Source: Thermoplasmata archaeon (GTDB lineage: Archaea; Thermoplasmatota; Thermoplasmata; Thermoplasmatales; GCA-001856825). Taken from it: a stretch of 64,000 nt of DNA. The position numbers and the translations under genes were made by a program. Positions 1,608 to 38,720 of this stretch are shown here, piece after piece. Where the stretch lies: contig JAJYUZ010000001.1 of the NCBI GenBank assembly GCA_021792255.1, positions 434,135 through 498,134 on the forward strand, in the 5' to 3' direction. The notes beneath the pieces were generated by a model. The model searched no databases. It was not told where the DNA came from and saw nothing but the letters and a program-made list of their open reading frames with translations. Position 1 is the stretch's first letter. Each line of letters opens with the position of its first letter.

Positions 1608-1825
1608 CTGGAATTAAGATTAATTCAATAAGTTTACGATTATGAGTACCTCTGCGTTATTTATTTGACCCCATTAGATGGAAGAGGACTGAAATGGTCC
1701 ACTCATCCTCGAATTTTAGAATTGTTCAGATCTGACGTCGACATGAATTTGTTCTATGGCTCCGGAGGAATCAGGTTGATCTGACCGGTGGGCTAAGTAT
1801 ATTATTCAGGTCATCATATTTGCTT

Positions 1826-5062: not shown

Positions 5063-6131
5063 GGAATACCGTGTTGTGAAAGAGCCTCCTCAATCTTAAA
5101 TTCTTAATATTCTCCCTCGTAGGATATACCCTGTTCGTCAGGAGAATACACGCCAACTTCATGTCAGAATTAATGCATATAGAGGTCCCCGTAAAACCAG
5201 TATGGCCGAAAGTACCGTATGGAGAAAATTCTCCCATGAAACCGTTGAAATCAAATGACTCGCTCTTTACTTCCGGCACTGGCACCTTCGTCATCCAACC
5301 CAGTCCAAACATTCCACCAAGATGTGCATTCTTATTCCTCGTTGCCAGTTCCCAAACACTCCTCTGTAGAAGCTCTCCATTCGCGAGAGAATGAATTATC
5401 CTGTTTATCTCTGAAGCGGTCGAAAATAGGCCCGCGTGTCCAGCGACCCCTCCGAGATAGTAAGACTTTTCATCGTGCACTTTCCCCCACACCAAACCTC
5501 TTTCTTCTGTAACTTCGGTAGGAGCTATTCTTTCCTTGCTCTGATGGGGGTTAAATCCCGAGTTCTTGAGTCCGAGTTTTTCCGCTACTTCGTGTTTCCA
5601 AATCGTGTCAAGGGGCTTGTTGTGCAGTTCTTCCAGTACGAACCCGAGAAGTATGTAATTCAGGTCGCTGTAAAGCTCCTTCTTGTTCACAGTCGCCTTT
5701 TCTGCTTCTACTTCGATTCCAGAAAGATATGCCCTTCTGTCTCTTCCCGCGGTGTAGAGAGGTTTGTCTGGTATGAGCCCTGAAGTATGAGTCATCAGAT
5801 TTTCTATGGTAAATTTCCCCAGATTCGGGAATTCTCCAAACAACCCGATATCAGCTATCGAATCCTTTAAGGATATCTTCCCTTTTGCGAGAAGCCTGCA
5901 CATCAGCAGGGACGTCACCAGGGGTTTCGTTAGCGATGCTAGATCGAATATCGTGTCTTTGTTGTAGCTGAACCCCAGTTCGTCGATTTGTCCAAATGCG
6001 TTTTGATAAAGGACCTTTCCATCGAGAGAAACGAGGGCGCTCAAACCCCTTGTGGAGGAAGGTACATTGTCGTGCAGCACCGAGTCGATTTCAGTGGAAA
6101 GCTTCTCTTCATCAATGGTACTCATATTCAA
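5049..6131 (-). CDS. Serine hydrolase of the beta-lactamase fold, AmiE(YbbE)/YfeW-like; probable muropeptide N-acetylmuramoyl-L-alanine amidase
   Basis: FDLASLTK (SxxK), YSDLNY, VHDE...LGGVAGHAGLFST and FGHTGFTGTS, typical of AmiE/YfeW-like proteins found next to murQ. No signal peptide. Confidence 0.75.
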   Translation of the reverse strand: MNMSTIDEEKLSTEIDSVLHDNVPSSTRGLSALVSLDGKVLYQNAFGQIDELGFSYNKDTIFDLASLTKPLVTSLLMCRLLAKGKISLKDSIADIGLFGEFPNLGKFTIENLMTHTSGLIPDKPLYTAGRDRRAYLSGIEVEAEKATVNKKELYSDLNYILLGFVLEELHNKPLDTIWKHEVAEKLGLKNSGFNPHQSKERIAPTEVTEERGLVWGKVHDEKSYYLGGVAGHAGLFSTASEINRIIHSLANGELLQRSVWELATRNKNAHLGGMFGLGWMTKVPVPEVKSESFDFNGFMGEFSPYGTFGHTGFTGTSICINSDMKLACILLTNRVYPTRENIKNLRLRRLFHNTVFLNLS

Positions 6132-6178: not shown

Positions 6179-7078
6179 TCACCTTGGTTTTAATAGATCC
6201 TTTTTCATTATTGTGAATCTTCTGGTCACCTTGAAACCAAATCTTGAATAGAGGTGAGTGGCCCGTTCGCTTGTCCACAAAAAGTAAGCGTGCTTCAGAC
6301 CCAGCCCCTTCATGTTGTTCAACAATTGGGCTAGGATCAGTGCCCCTATCCCCTTTGATCTCTCTTTGTCCTCGACGCCGAATGGACCAAACCTTTCCCC
6401 CGGGGAGTACCACATGTCGCCCCTTCCAGCAGAAAACATTCCATAGCCAACTATTCTCCTTCCGATTCTTGCAATCACAACTTGATCCTTGATTCCCATT
6501 TCAGCGACTCCCTTTGCACGATAGTAACAGTCGGAATTGAAGTTCTTTTCCACGAACGAAAGGAACTTGGCCTCTTCACCTTGTCTGAGGGAGGAAACTT
6601 CAAACTCACTCGGCTCTATTTCTAAGTGCTGCATCTTTCCAATTTCTGCTTCCATGGAAATAGCCTCTTCGTGTGGGACGAAACCCAGCCTACCCAGTTC
6701 CCTTGCCAGCGAACGATACCTAACGGCGTCCACTCCTGGCATCAAGTAATTTGGTACCACATTAGAGTAGTATACCGTTTTCACTTTTCTATTGAGGAAT
6801 TCTTCAAATTGCAAGTCCATTAATTTTCCAAAATTCTTCCTATCCTTGAATCCGCTCCCGAAGAACCACCCCTTGTCGCTCTCGGAGGATTCGTAGTAGA
6901 ATTTCTTCTTCCTAGTTACAGCGAGCGAGAATGCATCTTCCAGTGTAATCGGTAAAATGGGGTTCAAGTATTCGTCCTGAAGAAAGCTTCTTCGGATTTC
7001 CCGAGTCGTCACCGGATCGAGGCTATAAAATGAATTCCACTTTTTTTGAATTTCTTCTGCAGAATCATTCTTACTCAT
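6179..7078 (-). CDS. GNAT N-acetyltransferase (tandem-GNAT-like, possibly GlmA-like glucosaminide N-acetyltransferase)
   Basis: C-terminal GNAT with FGPFGV...RSKGIG acetyl-CoA motif and LYSRFGF. Internal PNYLMPGVD. Translationally coupled to the ABC ATPase gene (7071-7078 overlap). Confidence 0.7.
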   Translation of the reverse strand: MSKNDSAEEIQKKWNSFYSLDPVTTREIRRSFLQDEYLNPILPITLEDAFSLAVTRKKKFYYESSESDKGWFFGSGFKDRKNFGKLMDLQFEEFLNRKVKTVYYSNVVPNYLMPGVDAVRYRSLARELGRLGFVPHEEAISMEAEIGKMQHLEIEPSEFEVSSLRQGEEAKFLSFVEKNFNSDCYYRAKGVAEMGIKDQVVIARIGRRIVGYGMFSAGRGDMWYSPGERFGPFGVEDKERSKGIGALILAQLLNNMKGLGLKHAYFLWTSERATHLYSRFGFKVTRRFTIMKKDLLKPR

Positions 7079-8051
7079 AGAGATAGCACGCCACTAGGTG
7101 GTCTTTTTCAACTTCTCTGAACTTAGGCCTCTCCTTCCTGCAGTTGTCCATTACGAATGGACACTTGTTCGCGTAACTGCATTCATTTTTCCCCTCGTTG
7201 ACGTATTCAGATATCTGTCCCTTTGACTCGTCCAAATTCCACTTCTTCTTGGGATCGGGGACAGGTATTGAATCTATCAGGGACTTAGTGTATGGATGCA
7301 TGGGGTTGTTTATGATCCTGTCAGATTTGGCGACTTCCACCAGCTGACCGAGATGCATGACCGCAATTCTATCCGAGACATATTGAGTGACTGCAATGTC
7401 GTGTGAGATGAACATCATTGATTTGCCAAACTTGCGTTTCAGATCCAGAAGAATATTTAGGATGTCGGCTCTCAGTGAAACATCAAGCATAGAAACTGGC
7501 TCATCGGCGATGATGAAGTCCGGATTGTTGATTACCGCCCTGGCTATACCTATTCTTTGCCTTTGACCGCCACTCAGTTGGTTCGGGAATTTATTCAGGA
7601 ACTGTTCCGCTGGTGTCAGGCCAACCATTTCTATGGTCTCGATCGCCTTATTCAGAACTTCTTCCTCTTTCAGTTCCTTGTGAAACACTCTGAGAGGCGT
7701 AACTATTGATTTATAGACTGAGATCACCGGGTTTAGAGAACTGTATGGGTCCTGGAAAATCATCTGTGTCTTTTCCCTGAAACCGAACAGCTGGCGCCCT
7801 GTGTATTTCATTATATTGTTACCATTGAAAATTATTTGTCCGGAATCGACGTCCATTAACTTCAACAGCGCAAGTCCTAGAGTCGTCTTTCCACTGCCGC
7901 TCTCCCCTATGAGTCCGAAAATTTCGTGCTCTTTGATCTGCAGTTTGACCTGGTCCAGGGCTCGTGTTGTCCTGCTCTCTCTCCTTATGATCCCTCTCTT
8001 GTTGATGAAATCCTTCGTGAGTTCATTAGTTTCGATCGTACTACTTTCCAT
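7071..8051 (-). CDS. Oligopeptide/dipeptide-family ABC transporter ATPase (OppF/DppF)
   Basis: GESGSGKT, QDPYSSLNP, LSGGQRQR, ADEP, HPYT and C-terminal Cys motif. Start moved to ATG 8051, after GGTGA and the upstream stop. Confidence 0.92.
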   Translation of the reverse strand: MESSTIETNELTKDFINKRGIIRRESRTTRALDQVKLQIKEHEIFGLIGESGSGKTTLGLALLKLMDVDSGQIIFNGNNIMKYTGRQLFGFREKTQMIFQDPYSSLNPVISVYKSIVTPLRVFHKELKEEEVLNKAIETIEMVGLTPAEQFLNKFPNQLSGGQRQRIGIARAVINNPDFIIADEPVSMLDVSLRADILNILLDLKRKFGKSMMFISHDIAVTQYVSDRIAVMHLGQLVEVAKSDRIINNPMHPYTKSLIDSIPVPDPKKKWNLDESKGQISEYVNEGKNECSYANKCPFVMDNCRKERPKFREVEKDHLVACYLYE

Positions 8052-8055
8052 CAGA

Positions 8056-9027
8056 TCACCTTCCATAGAGATGACACGCGGCATAGTGTCCCTGTGAAAC
8101 CATTTTCAATTCTGGCACCTCGTTCTTACACCTGTCGAATACGCTGTCGCACCTGTCCTTGAATGGGCATCCTTTAATTTCCTCTGAAAGATCTGGTGGA
8201 GTTCCTCTGATTCCCTTGACGGACTTCTCTTGTTCGAGAGATGGAATCGAGGCCAGTAGGGCCTTTGTATATGGATGCTGAGGACTGTCGAAGATTTCGT
8301 TAGATGGTCCACTTTCTGCAATCTTACCCGCGTACATCACATTGACTTTGTCTGCTATGTTAGCCACCAGAGAAATATCGTGCGTAATGAAGATCAGTGA
8401 AATTGAAAGGTCATCCTTTAACTTGAGTAGCCTCGTCAGTATCTGTCTCTGAACCACTACGTCAAGGGCAGTCGTGGCCTCATCTGCTATTAGAATCTTA
8501 GGATCACAAGACAATGCCAGTGCTATGTTGACTCTTTGTTTCATCCCACCGCTCAACTCGTGAGGGAAAGATTTTCTAACGTTCTTGGTGAGCCCCGCAA
8601 GTTGAAGCATATAGTCGATCCTCTCGTCCACCTCATCTTCCTTGTACCCGTGTTCAACCATAACGTCCCCCATCTGATCCTCAATTCTCATTACTGGATT
8701 TAGTGAGTTCATAGCACTCTGGAATATCATAGAGACTTCTTTCCATCTGTACTTTCTGAGCGCGGATGGTTTCATCTTTAAAACATCAGACTTCCCCTCA
8801 CTCCCGTAGTACACAACTTTTCCACCCTTGATTTTCCCCGGATATTCGAGGAGTTTAAGGAAGGTCATTGCCAGTGTGGATTTACCAGATCCGCTTTCAC
8901 CCACTATCCCAATCACTTCTCCCTTGTTGACATCAAGACTGACGTGTGAAACGGCTTTTATTGTCCTATCAGGAAGTACGTAGTCTACGGAGAGATCGAC
9001 CACTTCCATAATCGTTGAAGTCGTCAT
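8056..9027 (-). CDS. Oligopeptide/dipeptide-family ABC transporter ATPase (OppD/DppD)
   Basis: GESGSGKS, LSGGMKQR, ADEATTALD, HPYT and GCPF..RC. Confidence 0.93.
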   Translation of the reverse strand: MTTSTIMEVVDLSVDYVLPDRTIKAVSHVSLDVNKGEVIGIVGESGSGKSTLAMTFLKLLEYPGKIKGGKVVYYGSEGKSDVLKMKPSALRKYRWKEVSMIFQSAMNSLNPVMRIEDQMGDVMVEHGYKEDEVDERIDYMLQLAGLTKNVRKSFPHELSGGMKQRVNIALALSCDPKILIADEATTALDVVVQRQILTRLLKLKDDLSISLIFITHDISLVANIADKVNVMYAGKIAESGPSNEIFDSPQHPYTKALLASIPSLEQEKSVKGIRGTPPDLSEEIKGCPFKDRCDSVFDRCKNEVPELKMVSQGHYAACHLYGR

Positions 9028-9929
9028 TTCCCATTCCCCTTTGAAGCTTTTGAAATTTCGTATATCGCATTCGATAGGAAATTAGCGCCAATTCCCAATA
9101 TCACGATCCCCAATCCCGGGGGAAGTAGCCACCACCATGCTCTGTAAACGATTCCATCTTCGGCCTGGAAGAAATATAGCATGGTCCCCCAGTTCACAGA
9201 CCTTAGGTCTCCAAGACCAAAAAAGGCAAGACCAGCTTGAGCTACTACTCCACCGACTGCCAAGAATATCGCATTGATGAAGATTATAGGAAGGAGGTTC
9301 GGAAGGATATCTCTGATAATAATCTGCATTCCATTCAGCCCCGAGAGCTTTGAAGCCATGATGTATGGTCTTTCTTTGAGAGACAGTGTTTGCGATCTTA
9401 CTACCCTAGCAAGAAAAGGCCAACTCAAGATCGAGAGGACAAAAATCGTAGTTTCCAGAGTCGGTGGGAGAAATGCGGAAAGTATGACGAGCAAAGGAAA
9501 TCCCGGGATCACCAGCAGAACGTCTACTGCCCTCATCAGTACGTCGTCGACCTGTCTTCCAAAGTATCCTGCCACCACTCCAACTAGAACTCCTATGAAA
9601 GCAGAAAGGAGCGCGATGCTTAATCCCACGACCAGAGATGTTCCAGTACCGATGAGGAACCAAGAGAATATGTCAGCCCCTTCGTAATCGGTACCTAGCA
9701 GGTGTTGATAACTCGGTGGTTGGAAGGCTAGAGAGTTAGTGTTATAGGGCGAATACGGAGCAAAAAAGTATCCGAATATCGCAAGAAGACCCAATGCCGT
9801 CAGAATTATGAGACCCGCCCGTCCTTTTTTGTGCGACCATACTCCCTTCATGAAGCTCCTGAACCTGTTCATCGGGCTATTGCTTGCCAACGCCCTTTGT
9901 ATTTCTTCCGCTCTTGCTTCGGACATCAT
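9024..9929 (-). CDS. ABC transporter permease (OppC/DppC)
   Basis: HLLGTD..G.DIFS, multiple TM segments, EAA-like region and WWW..PPG. Confidence 0.92.
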   Translation of the reverse strand: MMSEARAEEIQRALASNSPMNRFRSFMKGVWSHKKGRAGLIILTALGLLAIFGYFFAPYSPYNTNSLAFQPPSYQHLLGTDYEGADIFSWFLIGTGTSLVVGLSIALLSAFIGVLVGVVAGYFGRQVDDVLMRAVDVLLVIPGFPLLVILSAFLPPTLETTIFVLSILSWPFLARVVRSQTLSLKERPYIMASKLSGLNGMQIIIRDILPNLLPIIFINAIFLAVGGVVAQAGLAFFGLGDLRSVNWGTMLYFFQAEDGIVYRAWWWLLPPGLGIVILGIGANFLSNAIYEISKASKGNGK

Positions 9930-10924
9930 TTTAAAACCACCCTTGGATCCAAATACGCATACAGCAAATCGACTATAAAATTGGCAATAATGGTAGTAAA
10001 TGTAATCATGACGAAAATTCCCTCGATCAGAGGATAATCAGAGACCGTCACGGCATTGTATAGAACATATCCAATCCCGGGGTAAGAGAATACGACTTCG
10101 ACCAGAAACGCACCTCCAACGATTGATGCAAACGCTAGTGCGACGCTGGTCGCAACAGGTAACCTGGCGTTCTTGTTCACATACTGTTTCCTTATCGTAT
10201 TGTCACTAAGTCCTTTGGCCTTGGCAAGGAGAACATAGTCCTCGTCTAGCACAGTCACTACCGTATTTCTCATCAGAAGTGCAAATCCCGTGAAAGACGT
10301 GATAACAAGAGTTATAATCGGGAGCGCAGAATGTCTGAGTACCGATAGGACGAATGGAAGATTAGTTCCAGGGGTTACCGTTATTCCATATCCCTGAGCC
10401 ACAGGGAATATATGAAAACCATTGATCACAATCAGAACTGCAAAAACGAGTTGGAATATTAGAGCCAGCCAGAAGTATGGTACTGAAGTGAGAGATATAG
10501 AAAAGCCCTGCAAGAATGAATCGCTTGCGCCTCTCTTCCATCCTGAATAGGAGCCAATGAATATTCCTAACACGATTGAAATCATCAAAGAGGTACCTAG
10601 GAGAAACAGGGTCCAAGGGAGATGTGTCATAATCAATTGCGAGACGGGCTCTGGATAATAATAGAACGAAGGTCCAAAGTTTCCATGAATAAGGGACCCC
10701 CAAAATCCGACATATTGTTGCCACAGGGTACCTCCAAGATGGAGTTCGCTCTCGATTATCTTGAGCTGGTATGGATTTATGCGCCCTGCATATTTTGTAA
10801 GCAAAACATCCATAACTGGATTTCCCGGTACAGCCCTAGGAAGAAGAAAGACAAGGGTCAAAGCAATGAAAAGAGTGATCGCCATATATATGGTTCTGCG
10901 TATAAGATACCGAAGCGTTATCAT
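9926..10924 (-). CDS. ABC transporter permease (OppB/DppB)
   Basis: PGNP, QQY..F...L.HG.FG.S, AKAKGL, VE.VFSYPGIG, DYPLI.G and LDPRV. Confidence 0.93.
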   Translation of the reverse strand: MITLRYLIRRTIYMAITLFIALTLVFLLPRAVPGNPVMDVLLTKYAGRINPYQLKIIESELHLGGTLWQQYVGFWGSLIHGNFGPSFYYYPEPVSQLIMTHLPWTLFLLGTSLMISIVLGIFIGSYSGWKRGASDSFLQGFSISLTSVPYFWLALIFQLVFAVLIVINGFHIFPVAQGYGITVTPGTNLPFVLSVLRHSALPIITLVITSFTGFALLMRNTVVTVLDEDYVLLAKAKGLSDNTIRKQYVNKNARLPVATSVALAFASIVGGAFLVEVVFSYPGIGYVLYNAVTVSDYPLIEGIFVMITFTTIIANFIVDLLYAYLDPRVVLK

Positions 10925-11105
10925 TTCAATGTTATTAGCTCATGTGATATAGTCCTTTTTGAACCTGAACTTACCCTCCCCTCACTTCAATCTCATAGTC
11001 GTATACTTTGGTGACGAACCTAAAAATTAAGATCGGAGGTGCTCGTCTATCTAAGATAATTCTAATTGCGAGTTTTCATAATTTAAATTTTAATTGAAAT
11101 GCGTT

Positions 11106-11147
11106 CTTAACGACCCACTTTTTTAACTGTTTTAAGTGGGGTTTAAG
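11106..11147. promoter_or_regulatory. Imperfect inverted repeat in the divergent permease/SBP promoter region; candidate operator
   Basis: CCCACTT (11114-11120) and AAGTGGG (11134-11140) with a 13-nt spacer, flanked by CTTAA/TTAAG. TATAAA at 11176-11181 lies about 25 nt before the SBP ATG. Confidence 0.4.
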
Positions 11148-11203
11148 TAGTTTATCTCTTAAAAGACCAGAAATCTATAAATTCAGGATGTATTATAAAG
11201 TCT

Positions 11204-13048
11204 ATGACGTCTGAAAATTCTGGAAACAAAGGAACTAAGGTACGGAGTAAAATCTTGACAATAGCAATTGTTACCTTCGTTCTGACTATGTCTTTCGCAG
11301 TTCTTTTTGCGAATGGAAACGCAGCAACGCAACCCAGCGGAACGTATATCTGGGGTACTCCGGTAAGTACTCCGGTCACGGACCTTAACCCGCTTGTGGC
11401 AACCAATCTTGCAGGCGAAGCGACAGCAATAATGTATCCAACAAGTCTTCTGTATCCTCTGTCAGATGGCAGTTTGATACCCTGGCTAGCAGAAAACTAC
11501 ACGATAAGTTCAAACGGCTTGGTCTATACATTTAATTTAGTCCACAACGCAACGTGGATGAATGGAACGAGTGTCGCTGGTCCAATAACTGCTCAGGATG
11601 TTGCATTTACATTCAATGTCCTTAAAGCAAATTCGACGCTCGATTCGTATGGAGTAGATCCCTATCTCAAGTCTGTCACCGCTGTGAACAACTATACGGT
11701 CCAATTCGTGCTTAACTCATCTTCAATAATGATGTTGACGTATCTTGCAACACAAACGGTAATACCCGCCGCGTGGGGATCCCTAGTGAATGGCAATCTT
11801 TCGGCGGTAGGAGGCTACAACAATCTTGACACACCTCACCAACTGCAGGCAGGGCCTTTTATCCTACAGTCTGCAAGTGAAACCTCATTAAACTTCGTTG
11901 CAAATACTCATTTCTGGATGGGTACACCTCACGTACTGAATTTGATCGTTGAGCCGTTTAAGTCTACCTCCGCAATGACTCTCTCATTCCAAAGTGGAGC
12001 TATTGACGCAGAGTATCCGGCCATCAGCGACTATGCTGCACTAAGCACAACCTCTAATGTAGTCAACAATATTTACAAGGAACCCTGGTCATACTACCTG
12101 TGGGACAACACACAAGTAGCACCATACAACAACACGAGTTTCAGACAGGGGCTTGCTTATGCAATTAACAAGACTCAAATCATGCAGAAGGCAGAAGATG
12201 GCATAGGCGGAAGCGGATCGTATGGAGGAGAACCTTGGACGAATACTTCTTGGTGGGCAGCAGGTTTGCCCGAGTATAAGTACAACACCACACTCGCTAC
12301 GCAGTCATTCGAAGCCGCTGGTCTTACTATGAAGGGAGGTTTCTGGACATATCCAAACGGGACTGCAGTGCAGATCAAGATCGTGGATCCACCAGTTTCT
12401 GATTGGACTACGGCTGCCTCTTTCATTGCCAATGACTTGGGCCAGGCAGGATTCCAGGTAACGGAGTCTATAGTGCCTTTCAGTACATGGGCAACCGACA
12501 TGTTCCACAGCAAAGTGTCCCAAGCAACTAATGTCATCAGCTACTTTGGTGCAACGCCATCATACTCCAACGCTTGGTATGTGTTACAGGACCTTTATTC
12601 CTACAACAGCTTCTGGGATGGCTATATAACTCACTGGAACAATGCAACGGTCAACAACATATTCAATCAGACAGCGACCTTGGTCAATAACAACACATTA
12701 CTGCTCCAAAAACTTGCAGTAGCACAGAGAATAATTGCACAGCAGGTACCAATGGTTCTGATAGGAGATGTTGGCAATTACTATGCGTATAACGATCAGA
12801 AGATAACCGGATTTGTTGCAAACGAGCCACCAGATGGAACCTACAATCTGATAAGAATATCAGTACCATCCTCGGTAACGACTACCCCAACTTCGACGAT
12901 ACCTTCCTACGTGTATGCACTGATAGTAGTGATTGTTCTGATAGTTGTCATAGTGCCTATAGTCTACATAATGTCCAAGAGAGGAAAGGCGAAGAAAACG
13001 GAAGAAGCCCCCTCGACACAACCGCAGGAACCTGAAAAGAAAACATAG
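11204..13048 (+). CDS. ABC transporter substrate-binding protein, family 5 (OppA/DppA), archaeal type with C-terminal TM anchor
   Basis: Signal peptide, DLNPL, PWLAENYT..NGL.YTFNL and ITAQDVAFTF. Ser/Thr linker plus C-terminal TM. Roughly 15 N-glycosylation sequons; Trp/Tyr-rich. Confidence 0.9.
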   Translation: MTSENSGNKGTKVRSKILTIAIVTFVLTMSFAVLFANGNAATQPSGTYIWGTPVSTPVTDLNPLVATNLAGEATAIMYPTSLLYPLSDGSLIPWLAENYTISSNGLVYTFNLVHNATWMNGTSVAGPITAQDVAFTFNVLKANSTLDSYGVDPYLKSVTAVNNYTVQFVLNSSSIMMLTYLATQTVIPAAWGSLVNGNLSAVGGYNNLDTPHQLQAGPFILQSASETSLNFVANTHFWMGTPHVLNLIVEPFKSTSAMTLSFQSGAIDAEYPAISDYAALSTTSNVVNNIYKEPWSYYLWDNTQVAPYNNTSFRQGLAYAINKTQIMQKAEDGIGGSGSYGGEPWTNTSWWAAGLPEYKYNTTLATQSFEAAGLTMKGGFWTYPNGTAVQIKIVDPPVSDWTTAASFIANDLGQAGFQVTESIVPFSTWATDMFHSKVSQATNVISYFGATPSYSNAWYVLQDLYSYNSFWDGYITHWNNATVNNIFNQTATLVNNNTLLLQKLAVAQRIIAQQVPMVLIGDVGNYYAYNDQKITGFVANEPPDGTYNLIRISVPSSVTTTPTSTIPSYVYALIVVIVLIVVIVPIVYIMSKRGKAKKTEEAPSTQPQEPEKKT

Positions 13049-13060
13049 TATTTGACCATC

Positions 13061-13094
13061 TTTTTTTTATTTTTCTTTATTTTCTTTCAATTTT
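13061..13094 (+). terminator. T-rich archaeal-type terminator
   Basis: TTTTTTTTATTTTTCTTTATTTTCTTTC directly after the SBP stop codon. Confidence 0.6.
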
Positions 13095-13170
13095 AAATCA
13101 CAGCTAACCTCTTTTGAATCGCTAGGATTTGTGACCACATTTTAATTATACGAACCTGAATTCTCTCCAG

Positions 13171-14385
13171 TCACCGGTAGATTAGGAATTCTTCTCTATT
13201 CTCGATAAACAACGACTCATCAGATTTCAGTTTCTCTTCAAGCGCTTCCATTTCACCGTTTTGGAGGTAGTTTCTTATCAGAGAAGTGCCAGCAACTCGG
13301 TCAAAATAGTCGTTGTGAAACTGGAATTCTTCTGGATAGTCGTGAATTAATAAGTCCAGTAGCCTGGCACTGAATATGAATGGCCTAAATTTGTTCCTGT
13401 CTCTTATGTGAACCTCAATGCCCTGACATTTCATACCCTGGAACTTTGAGAACGTCGGTGTGAACCTGATCTCGCTTACTGCCACACCGGGCATATTAAG
13501 ATCGTTGATTTCGTGGGCGAATTTGTGACCATCTATCCACGGTGCACCGATTATCTCAAACGGTTTTGTAGTTCCCCTTCCTTCAGAGACGTTTGTTCCC
13601 TCGAACATTACCTGTCCGGGATAAACGGTGGCCGTGTCAATTGAGGGCATGTTGGGAGACGGAAGTGTCCATGGCCATCCCGTTTCATCAAACCACATTT
13701 TTCTATTCCAAGAAGCCATCCTTGAGATTCTTAAATCGACCCTGTTCTCGAACAAATTTGCATTGGTCATCGAGGCAAGCTCCCCTAACGTCATTCCGTG
13801 CCTCATCGTAATGGCATAGGCACCAATATAAGATCTGTACTTGGGATAATCAAGAATTGGCCCTTCCACGCTCGCTCCGTTTATCGGATTTGGTCGGTCC
13901 AAGACTGTCAGCTCGATCCCCCTATTGGCACAAGTTTCCATTGCATTGACCATCGAAGCTACGTGCGTATAAACCCTTGTTCCCACGTCTTGAATATCGA
14001 AAATCACCGCATCCAGCTCCGATGCTATCTCTTCTGGAATATACTTTCCAGTATCTTTTGTATCGAACGATCTCATCTTGCCGTCCGTGCTCGGGATTCT
14101 CTGCTCTTTTTTACCTTGTCTGTATATGCTATAGACCATGACGCCTAGTTCTTTGTCAAAATAGGAAGGTACAGACTCGCCTGCCTGTTCGTTGATATGA
14201 AATCCGTGCTCGGGTGAGAACAGAGCAGAGATTTTAATTCCGAATTTATTTAGTAGGTAGTCTGCTGTATATCCCAGATCAAAAGAGATTCCAGTCCTAT
14301 TAGTTATTAGACCAATTCTCTTTTTTTGCAATTGCTGAGCGAATTCTTTCCCAACCGTTTCTAGGCCAACTTTGACGCGCACCAC
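13171..14385 (-). CDS. namZ: Exo-beta-N-acetylmuramidase NamZ/YbbC (DUF1343, GH171)
   Basis: KVGLE, GLITNRTG, LFSPEHG, FDIQDVGTR.YT, LDRPNP, RHGMTLGE, PSPNMP and EGTNVSEGRGTT.PFE. No signal peptide. Confidence 0.9.
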   Translation of the reverse strand: MVRVKVGLETVGKEFAQQLQKKRIGLITNRTGISFDLGYTADYLLNKFGIKISALFSPEHGFHINEQAGESVPSYFDKELGVMVYSIYRQGKKEQRIPSTDGKMRSFDTKDTGKYIPEEIASELDAVIFDIQDVGTRVYTHVASMVNAMETCANRGIELTVLDRPNPINGASVEGPILDYPKYRSYIGAYAITMRHGMTLGELASMTNANLFENRVDLRISRMASWNRKMWFDETGWPWTLPSPNMPSIDTATVYPGQVMFEGTNVSEGRGTTKPFEIIGAPWIDGHKFAHEINDLNMPGVAVSEIRFTPTFSKFQGMKCQGIEVHIRDRNKFRPFIFSARLLDLLIHDYPEEFQFHNDYFDRVAGTSLIRNYLQNGEMEALEEKLKSDESLFIENREEFLIYR

Positions 14386-14539
14386 CTCGTAGATTTCTCC
14401 AACTCTTAAGTGTTGCTAAATTATATACTGCTCCAGTAATCTGTCAGCGACCAGTCTAATAGGCTCAATTTCAGAATGCCGATAATAATTTCATTCTCTG
14501 GTTATGCAAAGAATTTTAGACCCAGTGGAATTGAGTTGG

Positions 14540-15556
14540 GTGAATATTGTATCAGTAGACGGCGGGGCAACGAAAACTATAGCCGTTGTCTACAACGAAG
14601 AAAAAAAATTGCTGGGAGCAGGAGTTTCTGGTCCATCGAACTACAGAAACGTCGGTGTTCGGATGTTTAAGATCAACCTTTTGAGCGCAATCGAAAAGGC
14701 AGTAGCTTCATCTGGAGCATCCGATATAGGGGAGTACACTTTTGCGCTAGCTGGAATGAAGGATTCCAAGAAGTCCTCAGATAAGATCATGGGGATTCTT
14801 AACGCGATCATTCCTAGCTCTAATATTTCGTTCTTCAATGATGGGGAGGCGGGTTTCTTCTCAAGGTTCCCTGAAGGGAGAGGAATTGTAGTGGCTCCAG
14901 GTACCGGAATGGTATCATACGGACGCATTGGAGAAAAGATCGAAAGATCGTCGGGTTGGGGTTGGTTTCTGGACGACGAAGGAAGTGCCTTTTCGATCGG
15001 TAAGCGGGCACTCCAGGAGGCAGTAAAATTAATGGACAAGAGGGACGAAAGAGTGTCGATTCTGCCTGATTTTGTGAGACAATATTACGGACTATCTGCG
15101 GATAGAGACATAATCAACATAATACACAGAAGAGTGTTCGATGTCAGGGGGATAGCTCTACTGTCTCGATACGTTTCAAAATTTGCAGTGGAGGGGGATC
15201 CCGTCTCTTTGGGAATAATGAAAGAAGCAGCGGAGGAGACATCACGAGCTGCAGTTTCACTCTACAAGAGACTGGGAGAGCCCAAAGATATCGCGATTAG
15301 TGGGTATGGCGGGGTTCTGAGAGCAGGCGAGTGGTACTGGGACACGATCAAGAAGAACATCGAAAACAAAATAGGAAAATCTCAGTTCAGACCTCCAATT
15401 TCTGGATACGAAGCGGTTCTAGGTTCCATAGTACTGAAATACAAAATCCTTGGAGTGAACGTCGACGAGGCTATGGTTACTGACTTTAGGAAGCAATTAT
15501 CGGTACTGATTGATAGAATGAGCGTTGAGGACAAGAAAGAGTTTCTTCTGCTTTGA
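14540..15556 (+). CDS. BadF/BadG/BcrA/BcrD-family amino-sugar kinase (GlcNAc/MurNAc kinase, MurK-like)
   Basis: VDGGATKT, GPSNY, ND, APGTG and GWG..LDDEGSAF.IG. The in-frame GTG at 14540 is the likely start (ORF track gives 14504). Confidence 0.8.
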   Translation: MNIVSVDGGATKTIAVVYNEEKKLLGAGVSGPSNYRNVGVRMFKINLLSAIEKAVASSGASDIGEYTFALAGMKDSKKSSDKIMGILNAIIPSSNISFFNDGEAGFFSRFPEGRGIVVAPGTGMVSYGRIGEKIERSSGWGWFLDDEGSAFSIGKRALQEAVKLMDKRDERVSILPDFVRQYYGLSADRDIINIIHRRVFDVRGIALLSRYVSKFAVEGDPVSLGIMKEAAEETSRAAVSLYKRLGEPKDIAISGYGGVLRAGEWYWDTIKKNIENKIGKSQFRPPISGYEAVLGSIVLKYKILGVNVDEAMVTDFRKQLSVLIDRMSVEDKKEFLLL

Positions 15557-15589
15557 ATGATGACAATTATTCTGAACTCGGACAGAAAT

Positions 15590-17014
15590 CTAGAGGTTTG
15601 CTCCCTCTATTTCCCCTGGATCATAAAATCCGAGTATCGAGTATAAAGAAGCCAGAACACTTTCGAGCTTTTCGCTCATCGCACTGATGTAACCAACCTG
15701 TTCGTTAAGAAGACTGGAATCTACTGGTATTCCTGTCGAAACAAAACAGCATTTATTGCTATTCGAAAGTTCGTTTATCATCTTCCATGTTTCACTCAAA
15801 TGAAGATTCTTTCCTATGAAGATCACATTTGCGTTTTCTAACTTCAGTTCGTCGTTGAGATAGCGTATCTCGTTCTCTATCTTCAGATCGTTAAGCTTCT
15901 TGCCTAATTGTTGATACATAGTAAAGGGCCAGGAGCTTTCGTCCCCCCTATTCCGGAGGGGCACGATAAAGACGCGTTTCTCCAGATCAAGTTTCTTCTT
16001 CCTGATCCACTTTATTGCATTAACTGATATCCAATTCATAACTTCAGGTGGAGAGGATGTGTGACCGGACGGATGGATGTTCATTCTCAGGAGCCTTTCC
16101 TCTTTTTGTTTCGTGTCCACCTCGGCTCTCTTTTCAAGATGTTCAAATATTTCTAGTGCCAGATCAGGGTCTGCGCATTCGAGAACGTCTGCGCCTCCGG
16201 AAAAAGACGATTTGGTGAACTCTGCAACTGAAAAATTTGCAGATATTGCTTTCATATCCAGAGAATCCGTAATTATCAGATTTTGGAATCCCAGATCCTT
16301 CCTGAGATACGACATTATTTTATTAGACATCGATGCTGGGAAATCTGGGTCTAGGGCTTCGTATTTGATGTGGGACATCATTATACTTTTCACATCTTTC
16401 TTTATTGCACTCTTGAATGGAGTGATGCTGTTCATTATTGAATCTGCCCCTCTTCCGTCAACTGGCAGTTTTAGATGTGAATCCTCACGCACGTAACCGT
16501 GTCCTGGAAAATGTTTCGCAGTAGCAGCAACTCCAGCAGCCTGTATTCCTTCTATATAGCCCTCGCCCAACCTAGAAACTACTTCTGGGTTTGCCCCGAA
16601 CGACCTCTCCATCACTATTGGGTTGTCTGAATTGGAAAATGTGTCGAGGACAGGGGCTAGGTTCCAATATATTCCGACCTCCCTAAGCTGATGTCCGGTG
16701 ATGTTTCCAGCGTACCTCGCAAAGACCTGGCTTCCAAGGACCCCGAGAGCATAATTGCTTGGTAGGTAATCTAGGTCCCTTATTCTGACAACATTCCCTC
16801 CTTCTTGATCTATGGCGATTATCGGTCTTTGAATTTTTAACTCCTTGTCGTAGAAAGAGAAGATAGTTCTAATCAAATTTCTCAAAGAGTCAATACCGTT
16901 GAAATCCCTTCCCAGGAGCACAATTGATCCTGGCTTTATCGTATTCAGAACCTTCTTCGTTTTCTCCATGTTGGTTCCGTCGATGCCGGGCTGAAGGAAT
17001 AGTCCTGATCTCAT
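15590..17014 (-). CDS. nagZ: Beta-N-acetylglucosaminidase, GH3 (NagZ)
   Basis: IDQEGG.V.R, NLAPVLD, RSFG, KHFPGHG....DSH (NagZ signature), MMSH and ITDSL.M nucleophile. No signal peptide. Confidence 0.9.
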   Translation of the reverse strand: MRSGLFLQPGIDGTNMEKTKKVLNTIKPGSIVLLGRDFNGIDSLRNLIRTIFSFYDKELKIQRPIIAIDQEGGNVVRIRDLDYLPSNYALGVLGSQVFARYAGNITGHQLREVGIYWNLAPVLDTFSNSDNPIVMERSFGANPEVVSRLGEGYIEGIQAAGVAATAKHFPGHGYVREDSHLKLPVDGRGADSIMNSITPFKSAIKKDVKSIMMSHIKYEALDPDFPASMSNKIMSYLRKDLGFQNLIITDSLDMKAISANFSVAEFTKSSFSGGADVLECADPDLALEIFEHLEKRAEVDTKQKEERLLRMNIHPSGHTSSPPEVMNWISVNAIKWIRKKKLDLEKRVFIVPLRNRGDESSWPFTMYQQLGKKLNDLKIENEIRYLNDELKLENANVIFIGKNLHLSETWKMINELSNSNKCCFVSTGIPVDSSLLNEQVGYISAMSEKLESVLASLYSILGFYDPGEIEGANL

Positions 17015-17153
17015 CGCTAATTATCCATTTCCTGTATATAATTTGATGGAGAGCTTTGAGTATCTTTGGTTAATGCCTTTCCCAGTGTCCTATCGATAGT
17101 TCACTTCCTTCCCTGAAAGACTGGGTTTAATTATTTGTAAGGCATGCTTTGCC

Positions 17154-18218
17154 ATGATATCTTCAGTCGAGTTCAAGAGAATCGAAATTGCAATGAAGAA
17201 GCCTTTTGTTATAGCAATCGGAAGCACTTCAGTCTATGAAGGATTCATCGTGAAGGTGAAGACTGACGACGGATACGAGGGAATAGGAGAGGCTGTGCCG
17301 ACGCCACATATCATGGGCGATACCATGGGTTCGGTCGAGAACGAGCTTGGAATATTCCAAAAGAATATAGTTGGAATGGAGACCAGCCCGGAAAGGATCA
17401 ATGAGAAGATGTTCTCTCTCGCAAGAAATTCAAAGGCGAGCAGAGCGGCAGTAGATATGGCCATTTGGGACATTATAGGAAAAAAAGCGAAACTTCCAGT
17501 TCATTCCATCCTTGGAAATTACAGGAGCGAATTTGAGACAAGTTACACGGTCGATCTAGTAGAGCCAGAAGTTGCAGGAAGGGAAGCCGCAGAACTGCTG
17601 AGGGATGGAGTCGTTGTTTTCAAGATTAAGCTCGGATCTGGATTGGAAAAGGACTATGCTAGGGTAGAAAGGGTTAGGAAAATAGTGGGTGATGATAAGG
17701 AGGTATATGTGGACTTCAATCAGTCATACTCTGCAAAGAAAGCAATAGCACTATCAGAAAAGATTTCAAAATTCAACATAGAGTTTCTTGAACAACCCGT
17801 GCCCGCAAACGATGTGAGAGCGCTGAGGTTTGTCAGGGAGCACACGTCTATCCCCGTGATGGCAGATGAGGCTGTCATGTCACCTCAGGATGCTGCCACA
17901 ATCATACAAAACGAAGCAGCCGATATGATAAACCTGAAGCTCATGAAGTCAGGGGGCATCACAGATGGGTTGACCATCATCAAGACTTCACAATCGTTCA
18001 GAATTCCTGTGATGATTGGTTGCATGGTGGAGACCAGACTGGCAAATACTGCGGGCTTGCACCTGGCTCTTTCTCAACCAGCCGTCAAATATACCGATTT
18101 AGATGGGTTCTCTAGCTTAAAGGAAGATATAGTCAACGGCGGAATCTCCTTCAAGAATGGAAAGAATTCGTTGGGAGATGGACCGGGATTGGGAGTCAAT
18201 CTCAAAAAAGGTTATTGA
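17154..18218 (+). CDS. Dipeptide epimerase (L-Ala-D/L-Glu epimerase-like), enolase superfamily MLE subgroup
   Basis: KIK, DFNQ, EQP, ADE, NLKLMKSGG, GCM.E and the DLD (DxD) motif diagnostic of dipeptide epimerases. Confidence 0.85.
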   Translation: MISSVEFKRIEIAMKKPFVIAIGSTSVYEGFIVKVKTDDGYEGIGEAVPTPHIMGDTMGSVENELGIFQKNIVGMETSPERINEKMFSLARNSKASRAAVDMAIWDIIGKKAKLPVHSILGNYRSEFETSYTVDLVEPEVAGREAAELLRDGVVVFKIKLGSGLEKDYARVERVRKIVGDDKEVYVDFNQSYSAKKAIALSEKISKFNIEFLEQPVPANDVRALRFVREHTSIPVMADEAVMSPQDAATIIQNEAADMINLKLMKSGGITDGLTIIKTSQSFRIPVMIGCMVETRLANTAGLHLALSQPAVKYTDLDGFSSLKEDIVNGGISFKNGKNSLGDGPGLGVNLKKGY

Positions 18219-18389
18219 AGGAATTTTTCTGGATTGATATCCATTATGATACGTTCCGAGTTCACTCTAGACTGTAGAAAGACCTTGGATCATTCGTTCA
18301 AATCGCCCCATAGCTTTATCGCTAAGTCGGATGCTGCGAAGAAAGATTTGATGAAAAGAAATATTAAAGCTCCTTGGATTTGACTGAGA

Positions 18390-19481
18390 ATGAACGAATC
18401 TTTATCATTTATCTTTAGGGACAAGAAGGGAAGAGACATCCATTCCCAATCTTCAAAACTGCCAATGATACCTGCCTCAAACATGAAGATAGTGACTGGA
18501 CTCATCAGTTCTTTTTTGCTTGGAGAAAATTTTGAAATCTTGACTGAATTCAGAATCTCGGGAGACAAACTCATAGTTTCAGGAGGCCCCTCTCCGTTAC
18601 TGCGGACACCAGAGGTAGAAACGATACGAGAGCAACTTGGGAAATATAATGTGACTAGGGTAATGTTCAACGGAAGCTTTGACTGGAATGAATACGCTCC
18701 GAAATGGGCCCCTGAAGACCAAAATGAATGTTATCAGTCGAGAATTTCGTCCTTCTCGCTCAATGAAAATTGTATTCCTAGAACGAAAAAAATTCGTGTG
18801 ACGAAGACATATGACCCGCATTCGGAAAGAGGGGTCTCAGACATCCGACCATATGACACTCTTTCGAAGAAATTGCTTCGCGATTCGGCTGATAATATTT
18901 TCCCTTCTTTTGAATTTACAACCTTCTCCAAAGGAAAACTCGTTTATGTTCACAAAGAAAAGATAGGAGACATACTCGAACATCTGGAACCTATTAGCTG
19001 CAACTTTTCGGCCGATAGCTTATACAAGTTCATTCACCATTTCCGAACCGGACTGCCAGGAAGCTGGAAGGGAGGTTCTGAAACCATAATGGAAGAGATT
19101 GGAAAGCTAGGTCTGTCAGAGCCGGATCTATTTGTCGTGGATGGATCGGGTCTTTCATCTCTCAACAAACTTACTCCCTCCTTTTTGTCCAGACTGATGA
19201 GATTTGCTGTTGAACACAATGGTGGCAAATTCTTGGAATATCTGCCATCTCCAGGAACTGGAACTTTAGAGAAGAGACTCGAGGAATTCAGGGACTATGG
19301 AATCAAGGCGAAGACCGGATCTCTTACCGGAGTGGCGACCCTCAGTGGATACATAAAGAAACTCGACATCACTTTTAGTATCATGTTGAACAACACAGGC
19401 AAGAAAGGCAAGGCTGCCAGCGACGTTGTAGATGAAACTCTCGGGGAAGGGATCGATAGGATAGAGAAATTACGGAAATGA
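18390..19481 (+). CDS. dacB: D-alanyl-D-alanine carboxypeptidase/endopeptidase, peptidase S13 (DacB/PBP4-like)
   Basis: PASNMK (SxxK), SCNF (SxN), DGSGLS and KTGSL...LSGY (KTG). Compact, with no signal peptide. Confidence 0.85.
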   Translation: MNESLSFIFRDKKGRDIHSQSSKLPMIPASNMKIVTGLISSFLLGENFEILTEFRISGDKLIVSGGPSPLLRTPEVETIREQLGKYNVTRVMFNGSFDWNEYAPKWAPEDQNECYQSRISSFSLNENCIPRTKKIRVTKTYDPHSERGVSDIRPYDTLSKKLLRDSADNIFPSFEFTTFSKGKLVYVHKEKIGDILEHLEPISCNFSADSLYKFIHHFRTGLPGSWKGGSETIMEEIGKLGLSEPDLFVVDGSGLSSLNKLTPSFLSRLMRFAVEHNGGKFLEYLPSPGTGTLEKRLEEFRDYGIKAKTGSLTGVATLSGYIKKLDITFSIMLNNTGKKGKAASDVVDETLGEGIDRIEKLRK

Positions 19482-38492: not shown

Positions 38493-38720
38493 ATGGTAAA
38501 GAAAGGGACTATAAGTTCGAAGGGACAGATTACGTTGCCCAAAGTGTTGAGAGAAAAATACCATTTCAATGCTGGGGAGACAGTTGTGATGCTTGATTCT
38601 GGAGACGGTATTTTGATAAAGCACCCCCGAGAATCGCTTCGTGGACTTCTGAAAGAAGAAATTGATATTGACAAATTTGAAAAAGAATTAAAGAAACTTC
38701 GAAAAGAGTGGACAACATGA
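38493..38720 (+). CDS. AbrB/MazE/SpoVT-family antitoxin (VapB)
   Basis: ISSKGQITLPK.LR.KY....G. ATGA overlap with the PIN gene. Confidence 0.88.
   Translation: MVKKGTISSKGQITLPKVLREKYHFNAGETVVMLDSGDGILIKHPRESLRGLLKEEIDIDKFEKELKKLRKEWTT

Follow-up and report, generated by a model that had tools for sequence, protein, structure and literature searches.

Signal-less cell-wall hydrolases and a co-occurring family-5 ABC transporter in a Thermoplasmata archaeon: a candidate route for peptidoglycan scavenging

In a 64,000-nucleotide stretch of DNA from a Thermoplasmata archaeon (hereafter the window, i.e. positions 434,135 to 498,134 of contig JAJYUZ010000001.1, assembly GCA_021792255.1), genes resembling those used by bacteria to degrade peptidoglycan are grouped with an oligopeptide-type ATP-binding cassette (ABC) transporter. 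Where would such wall enzymes work in an archaeon, and what would the transporter bring to them? A sequence-only reading of the window had suggested that enzymes normally exported, namely NamZ, NagZ, DacB and an AmiE-like hydrolase, are cytoplasmic here and that the ABC system imports sugar-peptide fragments of the wall. On balance, the present analysis favours a catabolic cluster by which a wall-less Thermoplasmatales-type archaeon would feed on bacterial peptidoglycan fragments, imported through the ABC transporter and dismantled inside the cell. The breakdown of imported wall fragments in the cytoplasm is held to be very probable, and their entry as intact sugar-peptide units through this particular ABC system is given an even chance. 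Gene families, the absence of signals and conservation are read directly from the sequences, and each enzymatic step of the pathway is assigned by homology and gene context.

Wall hydrolases without signal peptides

Genes were called by Pfam and NCBIfam scans of the open reading frames (ORFs) of the window, each called ORF being extended back to the earliest start codon that the preceding stop allows. Those on which the question turns are the following:

1820 to 2965, plus strand: candidate extracellular Cys-His hydrolase (alignment of eight orthologues, hydrophobic N-terminus)
5049 to 6131, minus strand: AmiE-like serine hydrolase of beta-lactamase fold (Pfam Beta-lactamase PF00144, 154 bits)
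7071 to 8084, minus strand: OppF-type ABC ATPase (ABC_tran, oligo_HPY)
8056 to 9027, minus strand: OppD-type ABC ATPase (ABC_tran, oligo_HPY)
9024 to 9929, minus strand: OppC-type permease (BPD_transp_1, OppC_N)
9926 to 10924, minus strand: OppB-type permease (BPD_transp_1)
11204 to 13048, plus strand: family-5 substrate-binding protein, SBP (SBP_bac_5, 175.7 bits)
13171 to 14385, minus strand: NamZ (NamZ_N 225.7 bits and NamZ_C 170.6 bits, cut-offs 26.9 and 25)
15590 to 17014, minus strand: NagZ, a beta-N-acetylglucosaminidase of family GH3 (Pfam GH3 205.3 bits, over the cut-off)
18390 to 19481, plus strand: S13 DD-peptidase of PBP4/DacB type (TIGR00666 109.5 bits, cut-off 107.8)

NamZ, NagZ, the S13 peptidase and the AmiE-like hydrolase have no signal peptide, and this absence is conserved in orthologues. 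Open codons, hydrophobicity, domain starts and composition agree on the point, which bears out the first part of the sequence-only reading. Upstream of the called starts, 10 codons remain open for NamZ, two each for NagZ and S13 and none for the AmiE-like protein, and none of these extensions is hydrophobic. The best N-terminal window of 12 residues on the Kyte-Doolittle scale reaches 1.04-2.02 in the four enzymes, as compared with 2.67 in the SBP and 3.27 in the 1820-2965 protein. The Pfam domains of the signal-less enzymes begin at residues 24, 16 and 27; residue 16 of S13 is aligned with residue 32 of the PDB chain of Escherichia coli PBP4, and the GLITN stretch of NamZ starts at residue 24 in the window protein, compared with a median position of 65.5 among those homologues whose N-terminus is hydrophobic. 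Charged residues (K+R+D+E) account for 24.8% of NamZ, 24.3% of NagZ, 26.7% of S13 and 22.5% of the AmiE-like protein for a proteome median of 25.5%, and 10.1% of the SBP, 10.0% of the 1820-2965 protein and 8.7% of a second SBP encoded left of the window, these last three serving as controls for proteins located outside. N-glycosylation sequons occur at 0.4-1.4 per 100 amino acids (aa) in the four enzymes, for a proteome median of 0.46, and at 2.6-3.7 in the outside proteins (3.67 in the 1820-2965 protein).

The same division is seen in the orthologues. A hydrophobic N-terminus is absent from NagZ (11/11), from the AmiE-like protein (9/9), from S13 (9/9, the copy at locus L031 having a mis-called start) and from 11 of the 14 NamZ proteins, all 11 from the order of the window; it is present in 15 of 16 SBPs, the sixteenth (L024) being a mis-called ORF of 30 aa, and in all eight copies of the 1820-2965 protein. 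When the mis-started S13 copy of L031 and the NagZ copies cut by locus ends are left out of the count, the charged-residue contents of enzymes and surface proteins do not overlap:

SBP, 23 orthologues: 7.8-12.3%
1820-2965 protein, eight orthologues: 9.0-11.7%
NamZ, 11 orthologues: 23.7-28.7%
NagZ, nine orthologues: 21.7-25.6%
AmiE-like hydrolase, nine orthologues: 20.0-22.5%
S13 peptidase, eight orthologues: 20.5-28.3%

From these features, the four enzymes look cytoplasmic. Concerning NamZ, the premise that the enzyme is normally exported is sound as well, since an N-terminal hydrophobic segment is found in 98 of its 120 best homologues, a minority being other signal-less forms, and since AmiE, NagZ and NamZ are described as secreted in Bacillus subtilis, with a signal peptide shown for NamZ (PMC8054146). 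The three orthologues that depart from the rule comprise two NamZ proteins of archaea that belong to a distant family within the same phylum, with a lipoprotein-like LLLPMC signal, and a third with an unclear start. The LLLPMC copies (L020:9280-10572 and L021:9263-10555, genomes G020 and G031) adjoin NagA and NagB only; in this other lineage of archaea, the enzyme would thus exist in an exported form.

As to the identity of the four enzymes, NagZ falls below the cut-off of the equivalog model NF003740 (187.3 bits for 207); its best PDB matches are GH3 N-acetylglucosaminidases, down to an E-value of 4e-46, and it contains a KHFPGHG..EDSH stretch, which we take to be the NagZ signature. In the S13 protein, the motifs PASNMK (SxxK), SCN (SxN) and KTGS (KTG) align to those of E. 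coli PBP4 (2ex2). At 363 aa, compared with about 460-490 aa for a full three-domain PBP4, it has a middle insert shorter by about 58 residues, its residues 129-192 standing opposite residues 155-276 of 2ex2, and it scores 93 bits with NF008322, for a cut-off of 527. Working in the cytoplasm, such a DD-peptidase could shorten pentapeptides or cleave 4-3 cross-links. The AmiE-like protein finds its best NCBIfam match in PBP4B (124.8 bits, below the cut-off of 385) and contains the stretches SLTKP, aligned to SvTKP of EstB with its SxxK serine, and GHTGFTG. Its gene adjoins MurQ or NagZ in the window as well as in L014, L015, L019, L023, L032, L033, L034 and L035, and it is regarded as a candidate cytoplasmic amidase acting between N-acetylmuramic acid (MurNAc) and L-Ala. 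PDB entry 4k05 matches NamZ at 2e-57, and the SPEHG stretch, kept in all orthologues, would by its offset hold the equivalent of Glu92, the putative catalytic residue of the B. subtilis enzyme (PMC8054146).

Could the enzymes nevertheless act outside by some unrecognised export, or could the cluster serve another amino-sugar polymer, for example the glycans of the archaeon itself? Thermoplasmatales surfaces are heavily glycosylated, archaeal secretion is less well charted than bacterial, and signal prediction was heuristic. This explanation is nonetheless judged very improbable: the four enzymes and their orthologues are cytoplasm-like in composition, with no overlap with known surface proteins; the kinase, MurQ, NagA and the acetyl-CoA-dependent GNAT acetyltransferase of the cluster need cytoplasmic substrates; and MurQ, NamZ, a D-Glu dipeptide epimerase, a diaminopimelate (DAP) decarboxylase and a DD-peptidase are jointly murein-specific.

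The transporter, its binding protein and their linkage to the wall genes

The SBP has an N-terminal hydrophobic signal, a Ser/Thr-rich linker and, at its C-terminus, a membrane helix followed by a basic tail; we regard it as an extracellular and probably glycosylated protein. Its homologues at 36% identity or more number 51, all archaeal where named, followed by actinobacterial proteins at about 27%, and by this sequence comparison the clade is archaeal-only. One genome per species was scanned with an alignment of the clade, giving 29 loci, 15 of them archaeal (39-70% identity) and 14 bacterial (21-28%), in which neighbouring genes were sought by tblastn with the window proteins (E-value at most 1e-6, coverage at least 40%). 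Genes of the sugar branch, i.e. NagZ, NamZ, MurQ, NagA, the kinase or the AmiE-like hydrolase, lie at 8/15 archaeal loci; another four hold only the 1820-2965 protein, S13 or LysA, and the remaining three are contigs of at most 4 kb or are cut at the SBP. In the 14 bacterial loci no wall gene accompanies the SBP, except that two of them give LysA-like and GlcD-like matches. At L031, L034, L035 and L036, the 1820-2965 protein, S13 and LysA are encoded directly downstream of the transporter.

Across 120 genomes of the order, which as relatives are not independent samples, the SBP clade is present in 12 (557-902 bits, the next match being at 241 bits) and NamZ in 17. Both occur together in nine genomes, always on one contig and at most 23 kb apart; the SBP clade alone occurs in three, all of them fragmented assemblies in which the gene lies close to the end of a contig, and 100 genomes have neither. 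Among 17 other genomes of the genus of the window, the SBP clade or NamZ is found in one. With this patchy distribution the cluster behaves as an accessory island, and the comparison supports the family-5 SBP and its Opp-type ABC system as the transporter travelling with the signal-less enzymes in evolution. As a side observation, many homologues with signal-like N-termini and a length of 425-500 aa (P0310-P0425), the few named among which are bacterial (Aminicenantia, Acidobacteriota), share 47-52% identity with the window NamZ, and NamZ of archaea of the same order (L014-L018) only 42-45%; that the window protein is closer to signal-bearing homologues than to these archaeal copies hints at more than one transfer.

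That this is the only transporter of the cluster, as first proposed, holds for positions 1820-22262. The nearest others are an amino-acid permease (24857-26134) and a carrier of the MFS type (30208-31452) on the right and, on the left, a CUT1 sugar ABC system that lies among alpha-glucan genes at about 4-8 kb from where the window begins. This alpha-glucan locus (C3:422068-432314, L052:7934-18180), which borders the wall cluster on its left side, encodes a GH31 enzyme, a MalK-type ATPase, two CUT1 permeases, an SBP_bac_8 protein and an alpha-amylase. A role of its CUT1 system as a second carrier of wall sugars was judged unlikely, as it sits between the GH31 and alpha-amylase genes; the same GH31/CUT1 block adjoins NagZ in L016 (genome G188).

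Regarding the type of transporter, the permeases score 87 bits with YejB and 195 with Opp2B, and 82 with the YejE-type model and 211 with Opp4C, while the ATPases, which are two separate proteins here, score 238 and 223 bits with YejF, below the 289 of OppF and the 299 of OppD. The SBP was also said to be rich in Trp and Tyr. This is correct (8.1%, the 97th percentile) and not specific, two paralogous SBPs of the same genome reaching 8.8 and 9.0%; this richness was accordingly discarded as a clue to sugar binding. One related cluster encodes a protein of 1291 aa with an SBP_bac_5 domain, about twice the usual SBP length (L015:2251-6126, G073).

A proposed path from wall fragments to cytoplasmic intermediates

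The remaining genes of the cluster, together with those whose membership is doubtful, would supply the later steps:

207 to 1607, minus strand: GlcD-like flavin adenine dinucleotide (FAD) oxidase (Pfam FAD_binding_4 and FAD-oxidase_C; TIGR00387 404.7 bits, below the cut-off of 567.9)
3049 to 4185, plus strand: NagA, N-acetylglucosamine (GlcNAc) 6-phosphate deacetylase (TIGR00221 282.7 bits, cut-off 225.65)
4220 to 5062, plus strand: MurQ, MurNAc 6-phosphate etherase (NF003915 311.2 bits, cut-off 168)
6179 to 7078, minus strand: GNAT acetyltransferase (Pfam GNAT domains; PDB 5kga/5kf1, E-value 2e-5)
14504 to 15556, plus strand: sugar kinase of the BadF/BcrAD family (PF01869 117.3 bits)
17154 to 18218, plus strand: L-Ala-D/L-Glu (dipeptide) epimerase (PDB 3jva 8e-66, 1jpm 1.5e-62)
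19577 to 20845, minus strand: LysA, diaminopimelate decarboxylase, converting meso-DAP to lysine (TIGR01048 342.3 bits, cut-off 297.9)
20988 to 22262, minus strand: C45-family N-terminal nucleophile (Ntn) hydrolase/acyltransferase (NF040521 123.2 bits, cut-off 85)

In the proposed pathway, the membrane-tethered SBP would capture soluble wall fragments outside the cell, which the tethered Cys-His hydrolase (1820-2965) may first trim or loosen, and OppBCDF would import them, most likely as GlcNAc-MurNAc units still bearing their stem peptide. Inside, the GlmA-like acetyltransferase would re-acetylate glucosamine (GlcN) residues, NagZ would take off the terminal GlcNAc, the AmiE-like hydrolase would cleave the peptide from MurNAc, NamZ would take off the terminal MurNAc, and the BadF-type kinase would yield MurNAc 6-phosphate and GlcNAc 6-phosphate for conversion to GlcN 6-phosphate by MurQ and NagA. 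On the peptide side, the S13 peptidase would remove D-Ala or open D-Ala-DAP cross-links, a YkfC-like NlpC/P60 enzyme would cut the gamma-D-Glu-DAP bond, the epimerase would turn L-Ala-D-Glu into L-Ala-L-Glu and LysA would convert DAP to lysine.

Several assignments behind these steps deserve comment. The best PDB matches of the kinase are a hexokinase of S. tokodaii (2e-30) and then the MurNAc/GlcNAc kinase 8zo3 (8e-28), and it is taken as a candidate MurK-like 6-kinase of MurNAc and GlcNAc. The alignment of the GNAT protein, which is conserved at 38-50% identity in L014, L017, L018, L023, L034 and L035, covers residues 83-289 with 5kga/5kf1; the 5KF1 series is presumably Clostridium acetobutylicum GlmA, the label in the search output being just 'predicted acetyltransferase'. 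Being acetyl-CoA dependent, this enzyme would be cytoplasmic. The epimerase scores 222.8 bits with NF041118, below the cut-off of 500, 1jpm being the L-Ala-D/L-Glu epimerase (YkfB) of B. subtilis. LysA stands beside the cluster in L015, L016, L018, L023, L029, L031, L034, L035 and L036. The YkfC-like endopeptidase, with NlpC/P60 and SH3 domains and no signal, is encoded at C3:432358-433044 on the minus strand, about 1.1 kb left of the window (L052:18224-18910), and is 55% identical to a copy within the related cluster of genome G209; the cluster thus extends past the left end of the window. Next to the GlcD-like gene, a GlcF-like CCG iron-sulphur protein is encoded from window position 217 past that end, to C3:433101. 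The pair could act as a D-lactate dehydrogenase on the D-lactate that MurQ sets free. Its place in the cluster is uncertain, and the other archaeal loci do not show it next to the wall genes. The C45 hydrolase, found in the window and L023 only among the loci compared, is likewise an uncertain member. No obvious shared operator appeared in the intergenic regions, inspected by eye only.

Further epimerase-like genes were noted elsewhere in the genome. A second enolase-superfamily gene of this type is arranged operon-style with an M20 peptidase at 42803-44987 on the plus strand of the window, and in G188 an orthologous pair (51% identity) is located no more than about 5 kb from the genes of S13 and GNAT (L017); the pair in the window may supply the dipeptidase step that is otherwise missing. 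Beside other Opp systems stand two further paralogues (C3:13331-14410 and C1:233-1303).

The enzymes themselves bear on the form in which fragments enter. For NamZ, the MurNAc at the non-reducing end has to be free of peptide, and the enzyme works sequentially with NagZ and AmiE in the description given for B. subtilis (PMC8054146). With NamZ, NagZ and the AmiE-like hydrolase all inside, the simplest substrate would be a GlcNAc-MurNAc unit, or a short chain, still with its peptide, and the presence of NamZ would point to MurNAc-GlcNAc disaccharides or chains of at least three sugars. Genes of the Amidase_2, Amidase_3, GH73, GH25 and SLT types were not found in the genome, which makes the signal-less AmiE-like protein the main amidase candidate and suggests that MurNAc-peptide bonds are cut inside. 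A phosphotransferase system (PTS) EIIC component, an AmpG-type permease and AnmK were not found in the genome either; along with the MurK-like kinase, this speaks for unphosphorylated MurNAc and GlcNAc inside the cell, free MurNAc being phosphorylated by MurK-type kinases of the BadF family according to PMC5790795. The kinase and the GlmA-like acetyltransferase together fit a breakdown of sugar-bearing wall fragments inside the cell.

In its fullest form, the proposal is put forward tentatively: an archaeal-only SBP with its ABC system would import whole muropeptides, possibly oligomeric or cross-linked, with the complete exo-lytic set that is secreted by Firmicutes (NagZ, AmiE and NamZ) and a PBP4-type DD-peptidase moved to the cytoplasm, and a surface Cys-His hydrolase cutting first. 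The import of cross-linked fragments has the signal-less S13 peptidase as its sole hint.

The earlier claim that sugar-peptide fragments are imported stands in part: the enzymes look cytoplasmic and the transporter co-travels with them, but the SBP is equally far from binders of peptides, glycans and nickel. At 17-22% identity it resembles all of them alike, by sequence and by fold, and this heads the points that weigh against import of intact units by this system. Binders at similar distances include those of glutathione/dipeptides, of manno-oligosaccharides in Thermotoga and of chitin oligosaccharides in Vibrio, as well as NikA, and the Foldseek matches of its AlphaFold model (predicted local distance difference test, pLDDT, 80) are a mixture of binders for peptides, chitin, mannosides and nickel (16-22% identity), giving no ligand call; MppA (E-value 8e-17) and DppE (6e-18) rank below about 50 other binders. 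Besides, four more Opp-type systems are encoded in the genome, of which two adjoin epimerase paralogues, and related clusters have other carriers, namely an MFS sugar transporter in L014 and the CUT1 ABC system by NagZ in L016, as well as other SBPs. NamZ is found without the SBP clade in eight of the 120 genomes of the order. The assignment as AmiE is drawn from family and gene neighbourhood, the nearest solved structures being esterases, and no named AmiE appears among the 120 listed homologues. An LD-carboxypeptidase was not found in the genome, leaving the handling of tetrapeptides incomplete, although it does occur in clusters of relatives. The signal calls come from heuristic measures with internal positive controls rather than from a trained predictor. 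Lastly, the 1820-2965 hydrolase could strip peptides outside, making a separate import of glycans and peptides possible.

This surface protein, which the earlier account of the cluster missed along with the YkfC-like endopeptidase, is 47-63% identical in eight loci (8/15 archaeal SBP loci), where it adjoins OppF or S13. From its N-terminus, which is hydrophobic, it runs through a Cys-His domain and an Ig/PKD-like domain to a membrane helix and a basic tail at the C-terminus. C93, H207, Q219 and D221, in the order Cys, His, Gln/Asp, are invariant in 8/8 orthologues, as are the stretches SEDCAHFVSE and GGHAM.YIGNG.V.QTD. Its kinship to known families is weak but consistent: below threshold, Amidase_6 matches 8/8 family members (best E-value 9e-4) and NlpC_P60 5/8, the window protein itself giving 14.4 bits with Amidase_6 for a cut-off of 23.2; Amidase_6 clusters account for 28 of 30 ESM Atlas matches (score 0.91); and the His motif aligns to RipA/RipB (weakly, E-value about 0.06) and to YkfC-like proteins, hhalign giving for the latter a probability of 6% on the His motif only. 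In an AlphaFold model from eight sequences the mean pLDDT is 48, the catalytic domain lying below 50 and the Ig-like part alone being confident. A profile search of 1.84 billion representatives gave 125 matches; the catalytic domain is covered by only one full-length protein (P0181) and by a few fragments, all others falling on the Ig/PKD part; among these representatives, the catalytic domain has no relatives outside its own cluster. The protein is the best candidate for an extracellular step, as a peptidoglycan amidase or endopeptidase. If an amidase, it would allow separate import; if an endopeptidase, it would release glycopeptides.

Separate import could take two forms. In the first, the SBP and its Opp system would take up free stem peptides, as MppA-Opp does in E. 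coli and DppE-Dpp in B. subtilis, and the wall sugars would enter by another carrier to meet NagZ, NamZ and the kinase in the cytoplasm. The transporter is of peptide/nickel type by every family model, the genes directly downstream of it at four loci are those of the 1820-2965 protein, S13 and LysA, the YkfC-like/epimerase/LysA branch mirrors the dpp-ykf genes of B. subtilis, and separate sugar carriers occur in related clusters. We nevertheless hold this form to be unlikely: no sugar carrier is conserved with the cluster, PTS and AmpG-type permeases being among those not found in the genome; the signal-less candidate for a MurNAc-peptide amidase would be left without a substrate inside; sugar-branch genes flank the very same transporter at more than half of the archaeal loci; and MppA and DppE are among the weaker PDB matches of the SBP.

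In the second form, the Cys-His hydrolase would act as an amidase outside, the SBP would bind peptide-free GlcNAc/MurNAc oligosaccharides and the peptides would enter by another Opp system, of which four are available. Chitin-specific and manno-oligosaccharide binders are indeed among the sequences and folds closest to the SBP, the 1820-2965 protein resembles Amidase_6 and a peptide-free MurNAc is what NamZ requires in the account of PMC8054146. Yet this form appears less likely still, as the signal-less AmiE-like hydrolase is strictly conserved beside MurQ or NagZ, the peptide-branch genes are co-located with this transporter and not with the others, and the match of the 1820-2965 protein to its family is sub-threshold, with a catalytic domain confined to its own cluster. 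Of the forms of import weighed here, entry as intact sugar-peptide units is given the most weight.

Known systems, the host and a possible place of archaea in wall turnover

A close parallel in gene content is the murQ-murR-murP-amiE-nagZ-namZ (ybbC) operon of B. subtilis, in which MurQ, an AmiE-type enzyme, a GH3 NagZ and NamZ are also clustered and sugars are removed stepwise from the non-reducing end before entering the MurQ route (PMC8054146). There, AmiE, NagZ and NamZ are described as secreted and single sugars as taken up by the PTS (PMC8054146), whereas the archaeal enzymes are signal-less and no PTS was found in the genome; the kinase replaces phosphorylation by the PTS, and the Opp-type ABC system replaces MurP. 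The archaeal cluster has no MurR regulator either, and its host makes no peptidoglycan, implying feeding rather than recycling. All in all, the cluster combines the enzymes of the B. subtilis murQ operon with those of the ykf genes, in a cytoplasmic location of Gram-negative style. The dppABCDE-ykfABCD genes are the murein peptide genes of B. subtilis, and they likewise group a family-5 SBP ABC system with an epimerase of YkfB type and an NlpC/P60+SH3 endopeptidase of YkfC type. They deal with peptides only, whereas the archaeal neighbourhood adds a full MurNAc/GlcNAc branch, and no YkfA/LdcA homologue was found in the genome.

As for location, the cluster is closer to E. coli recycling by AmpG, NagZ, AmpD and LdcA with MppA-OppBCDF, in which a signal-less NagZ and an amidase also process fragments in the cytoplasm and Opp takes part in murein-peptide uptake. 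The archaeon differs in that an AmpG-type permease, AnmK, Amidase_2 (the AmpD family) and LdcA were not found in its genome, in the added NamZ, MurK-like and GlmA-like functions, and in the distance of MppA from its SBP. The C. acetobutylicum enzymes were reportedly characterized by Reith and Mayer in 2011, MurK being a MurNAc/GlcNAc kinase and GlmA a glucosamine/glucosaminide N-acetyltransferase. The BadF-family kinase and the GNAT protein resemble these enzymes of a bacterial host by modest matches (8zo3 and the 5kf1 series, respectively), and this similarity suggests a cytoplasmic handling of unphosphorylated, partly de-N-acetylated wall sugars.

Regarding uptake itself, the YejBEF-YepA system of Agrobacterium tumefaciens is reported to import muropeptides by an ABC transporter, including dimers, anhydro and non-anhydro forms and GlcNAc-MurNAc forms, which are then processed in the cytoplasm by NagZ and an amidase (PMC9790009). 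It too is a peptide-type ABC transporter with a dedicated binding protein. It serves recycling in a walled alphaproteobacterium, is tied to AmpC control and has a YepA that is stated to be exclusive to Alphaproteobacteria (PMC9790009), whereas the archaeal permeases and ATPases score higher with Opp/Dpp/Nik models, are not Yej orthologues and work with an SBP of an archaeal-only clade. The system of the window is accordingly distinct from AmpG, MppA or PTS, as had been claimed, but muropeptide import by a peptide-type ABC transporter was already on record (PMC9790009). What is new, within known peptidoglycan salvage, is the archaeal setting, a binding-protein clade of its own and the relocated set of exo-enzymes. 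At the level of search listings, no publication on a peptidoglycan cluster of NamZ/MurQ type in archaea was returned by a full-text literature search.

The window forms the right-hand end of a 498-kb contig, the whole genome amounting to 1.59 Mb. The remaining genes of the window are those of an archaeon: a protein with a Nop56/58-type small nucleolar RNA (snoRNA)-binding (Nop) domain, a geranylgeranylglyceryl phosphate (GGGP) synthase, a UbiA prenyltransferase, an S13/S4/S11/RpoD block, SRP54, Trm1 and ComB. Where homologues are named, they are labelled Thermoplasmatales, Thermoplasmata or Thermoplasmatota. Other genes of the window include a 693-aa ORF with no Pfam match (33402-35483, plus strand) and two PIN-domain genes (38708-39118 and 61817-62191). 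No penicillin-binding protein (PBP) transpeptidase and no SEDS protein were found in the genome, which is 93.55% complete; the host thus makes no murein, and the cluster must act on a foreign wall. It is scavenging of foreign cell wall, not recycling. Among the sequencing runs listed as sharing words with the window, none of them RNA, those with at least 90% of the sampled words and no flag as a possible source belong to two studies, labelled as mine tailings and sediment metagenomes. These labels agree with the surface proteins, whose composition is acid-adapted.

Much organic carbon and nitrogen is stored in peptidoglycan, whose consumers have been assumed to be bacteria and eukaryotes. If the proposed import and breakdown are true, archaea would join the turnover of bacterial necromass in acidic habitats, and part of the 'scavenger' lifestyle of the Thermoplasmatales would be explained. 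A second, unrelated and independent example of muropeptide import by an ABC transporter would then be at hand, and biochemistry would gain cytoplasmic NamZ, AmiE and PBP4-type enzymes from an acid habitat. Related clusters occur in cultured relatives, one homologue being labelled Picrophilus oshimae at NCBI, which makes the idea directly testable.

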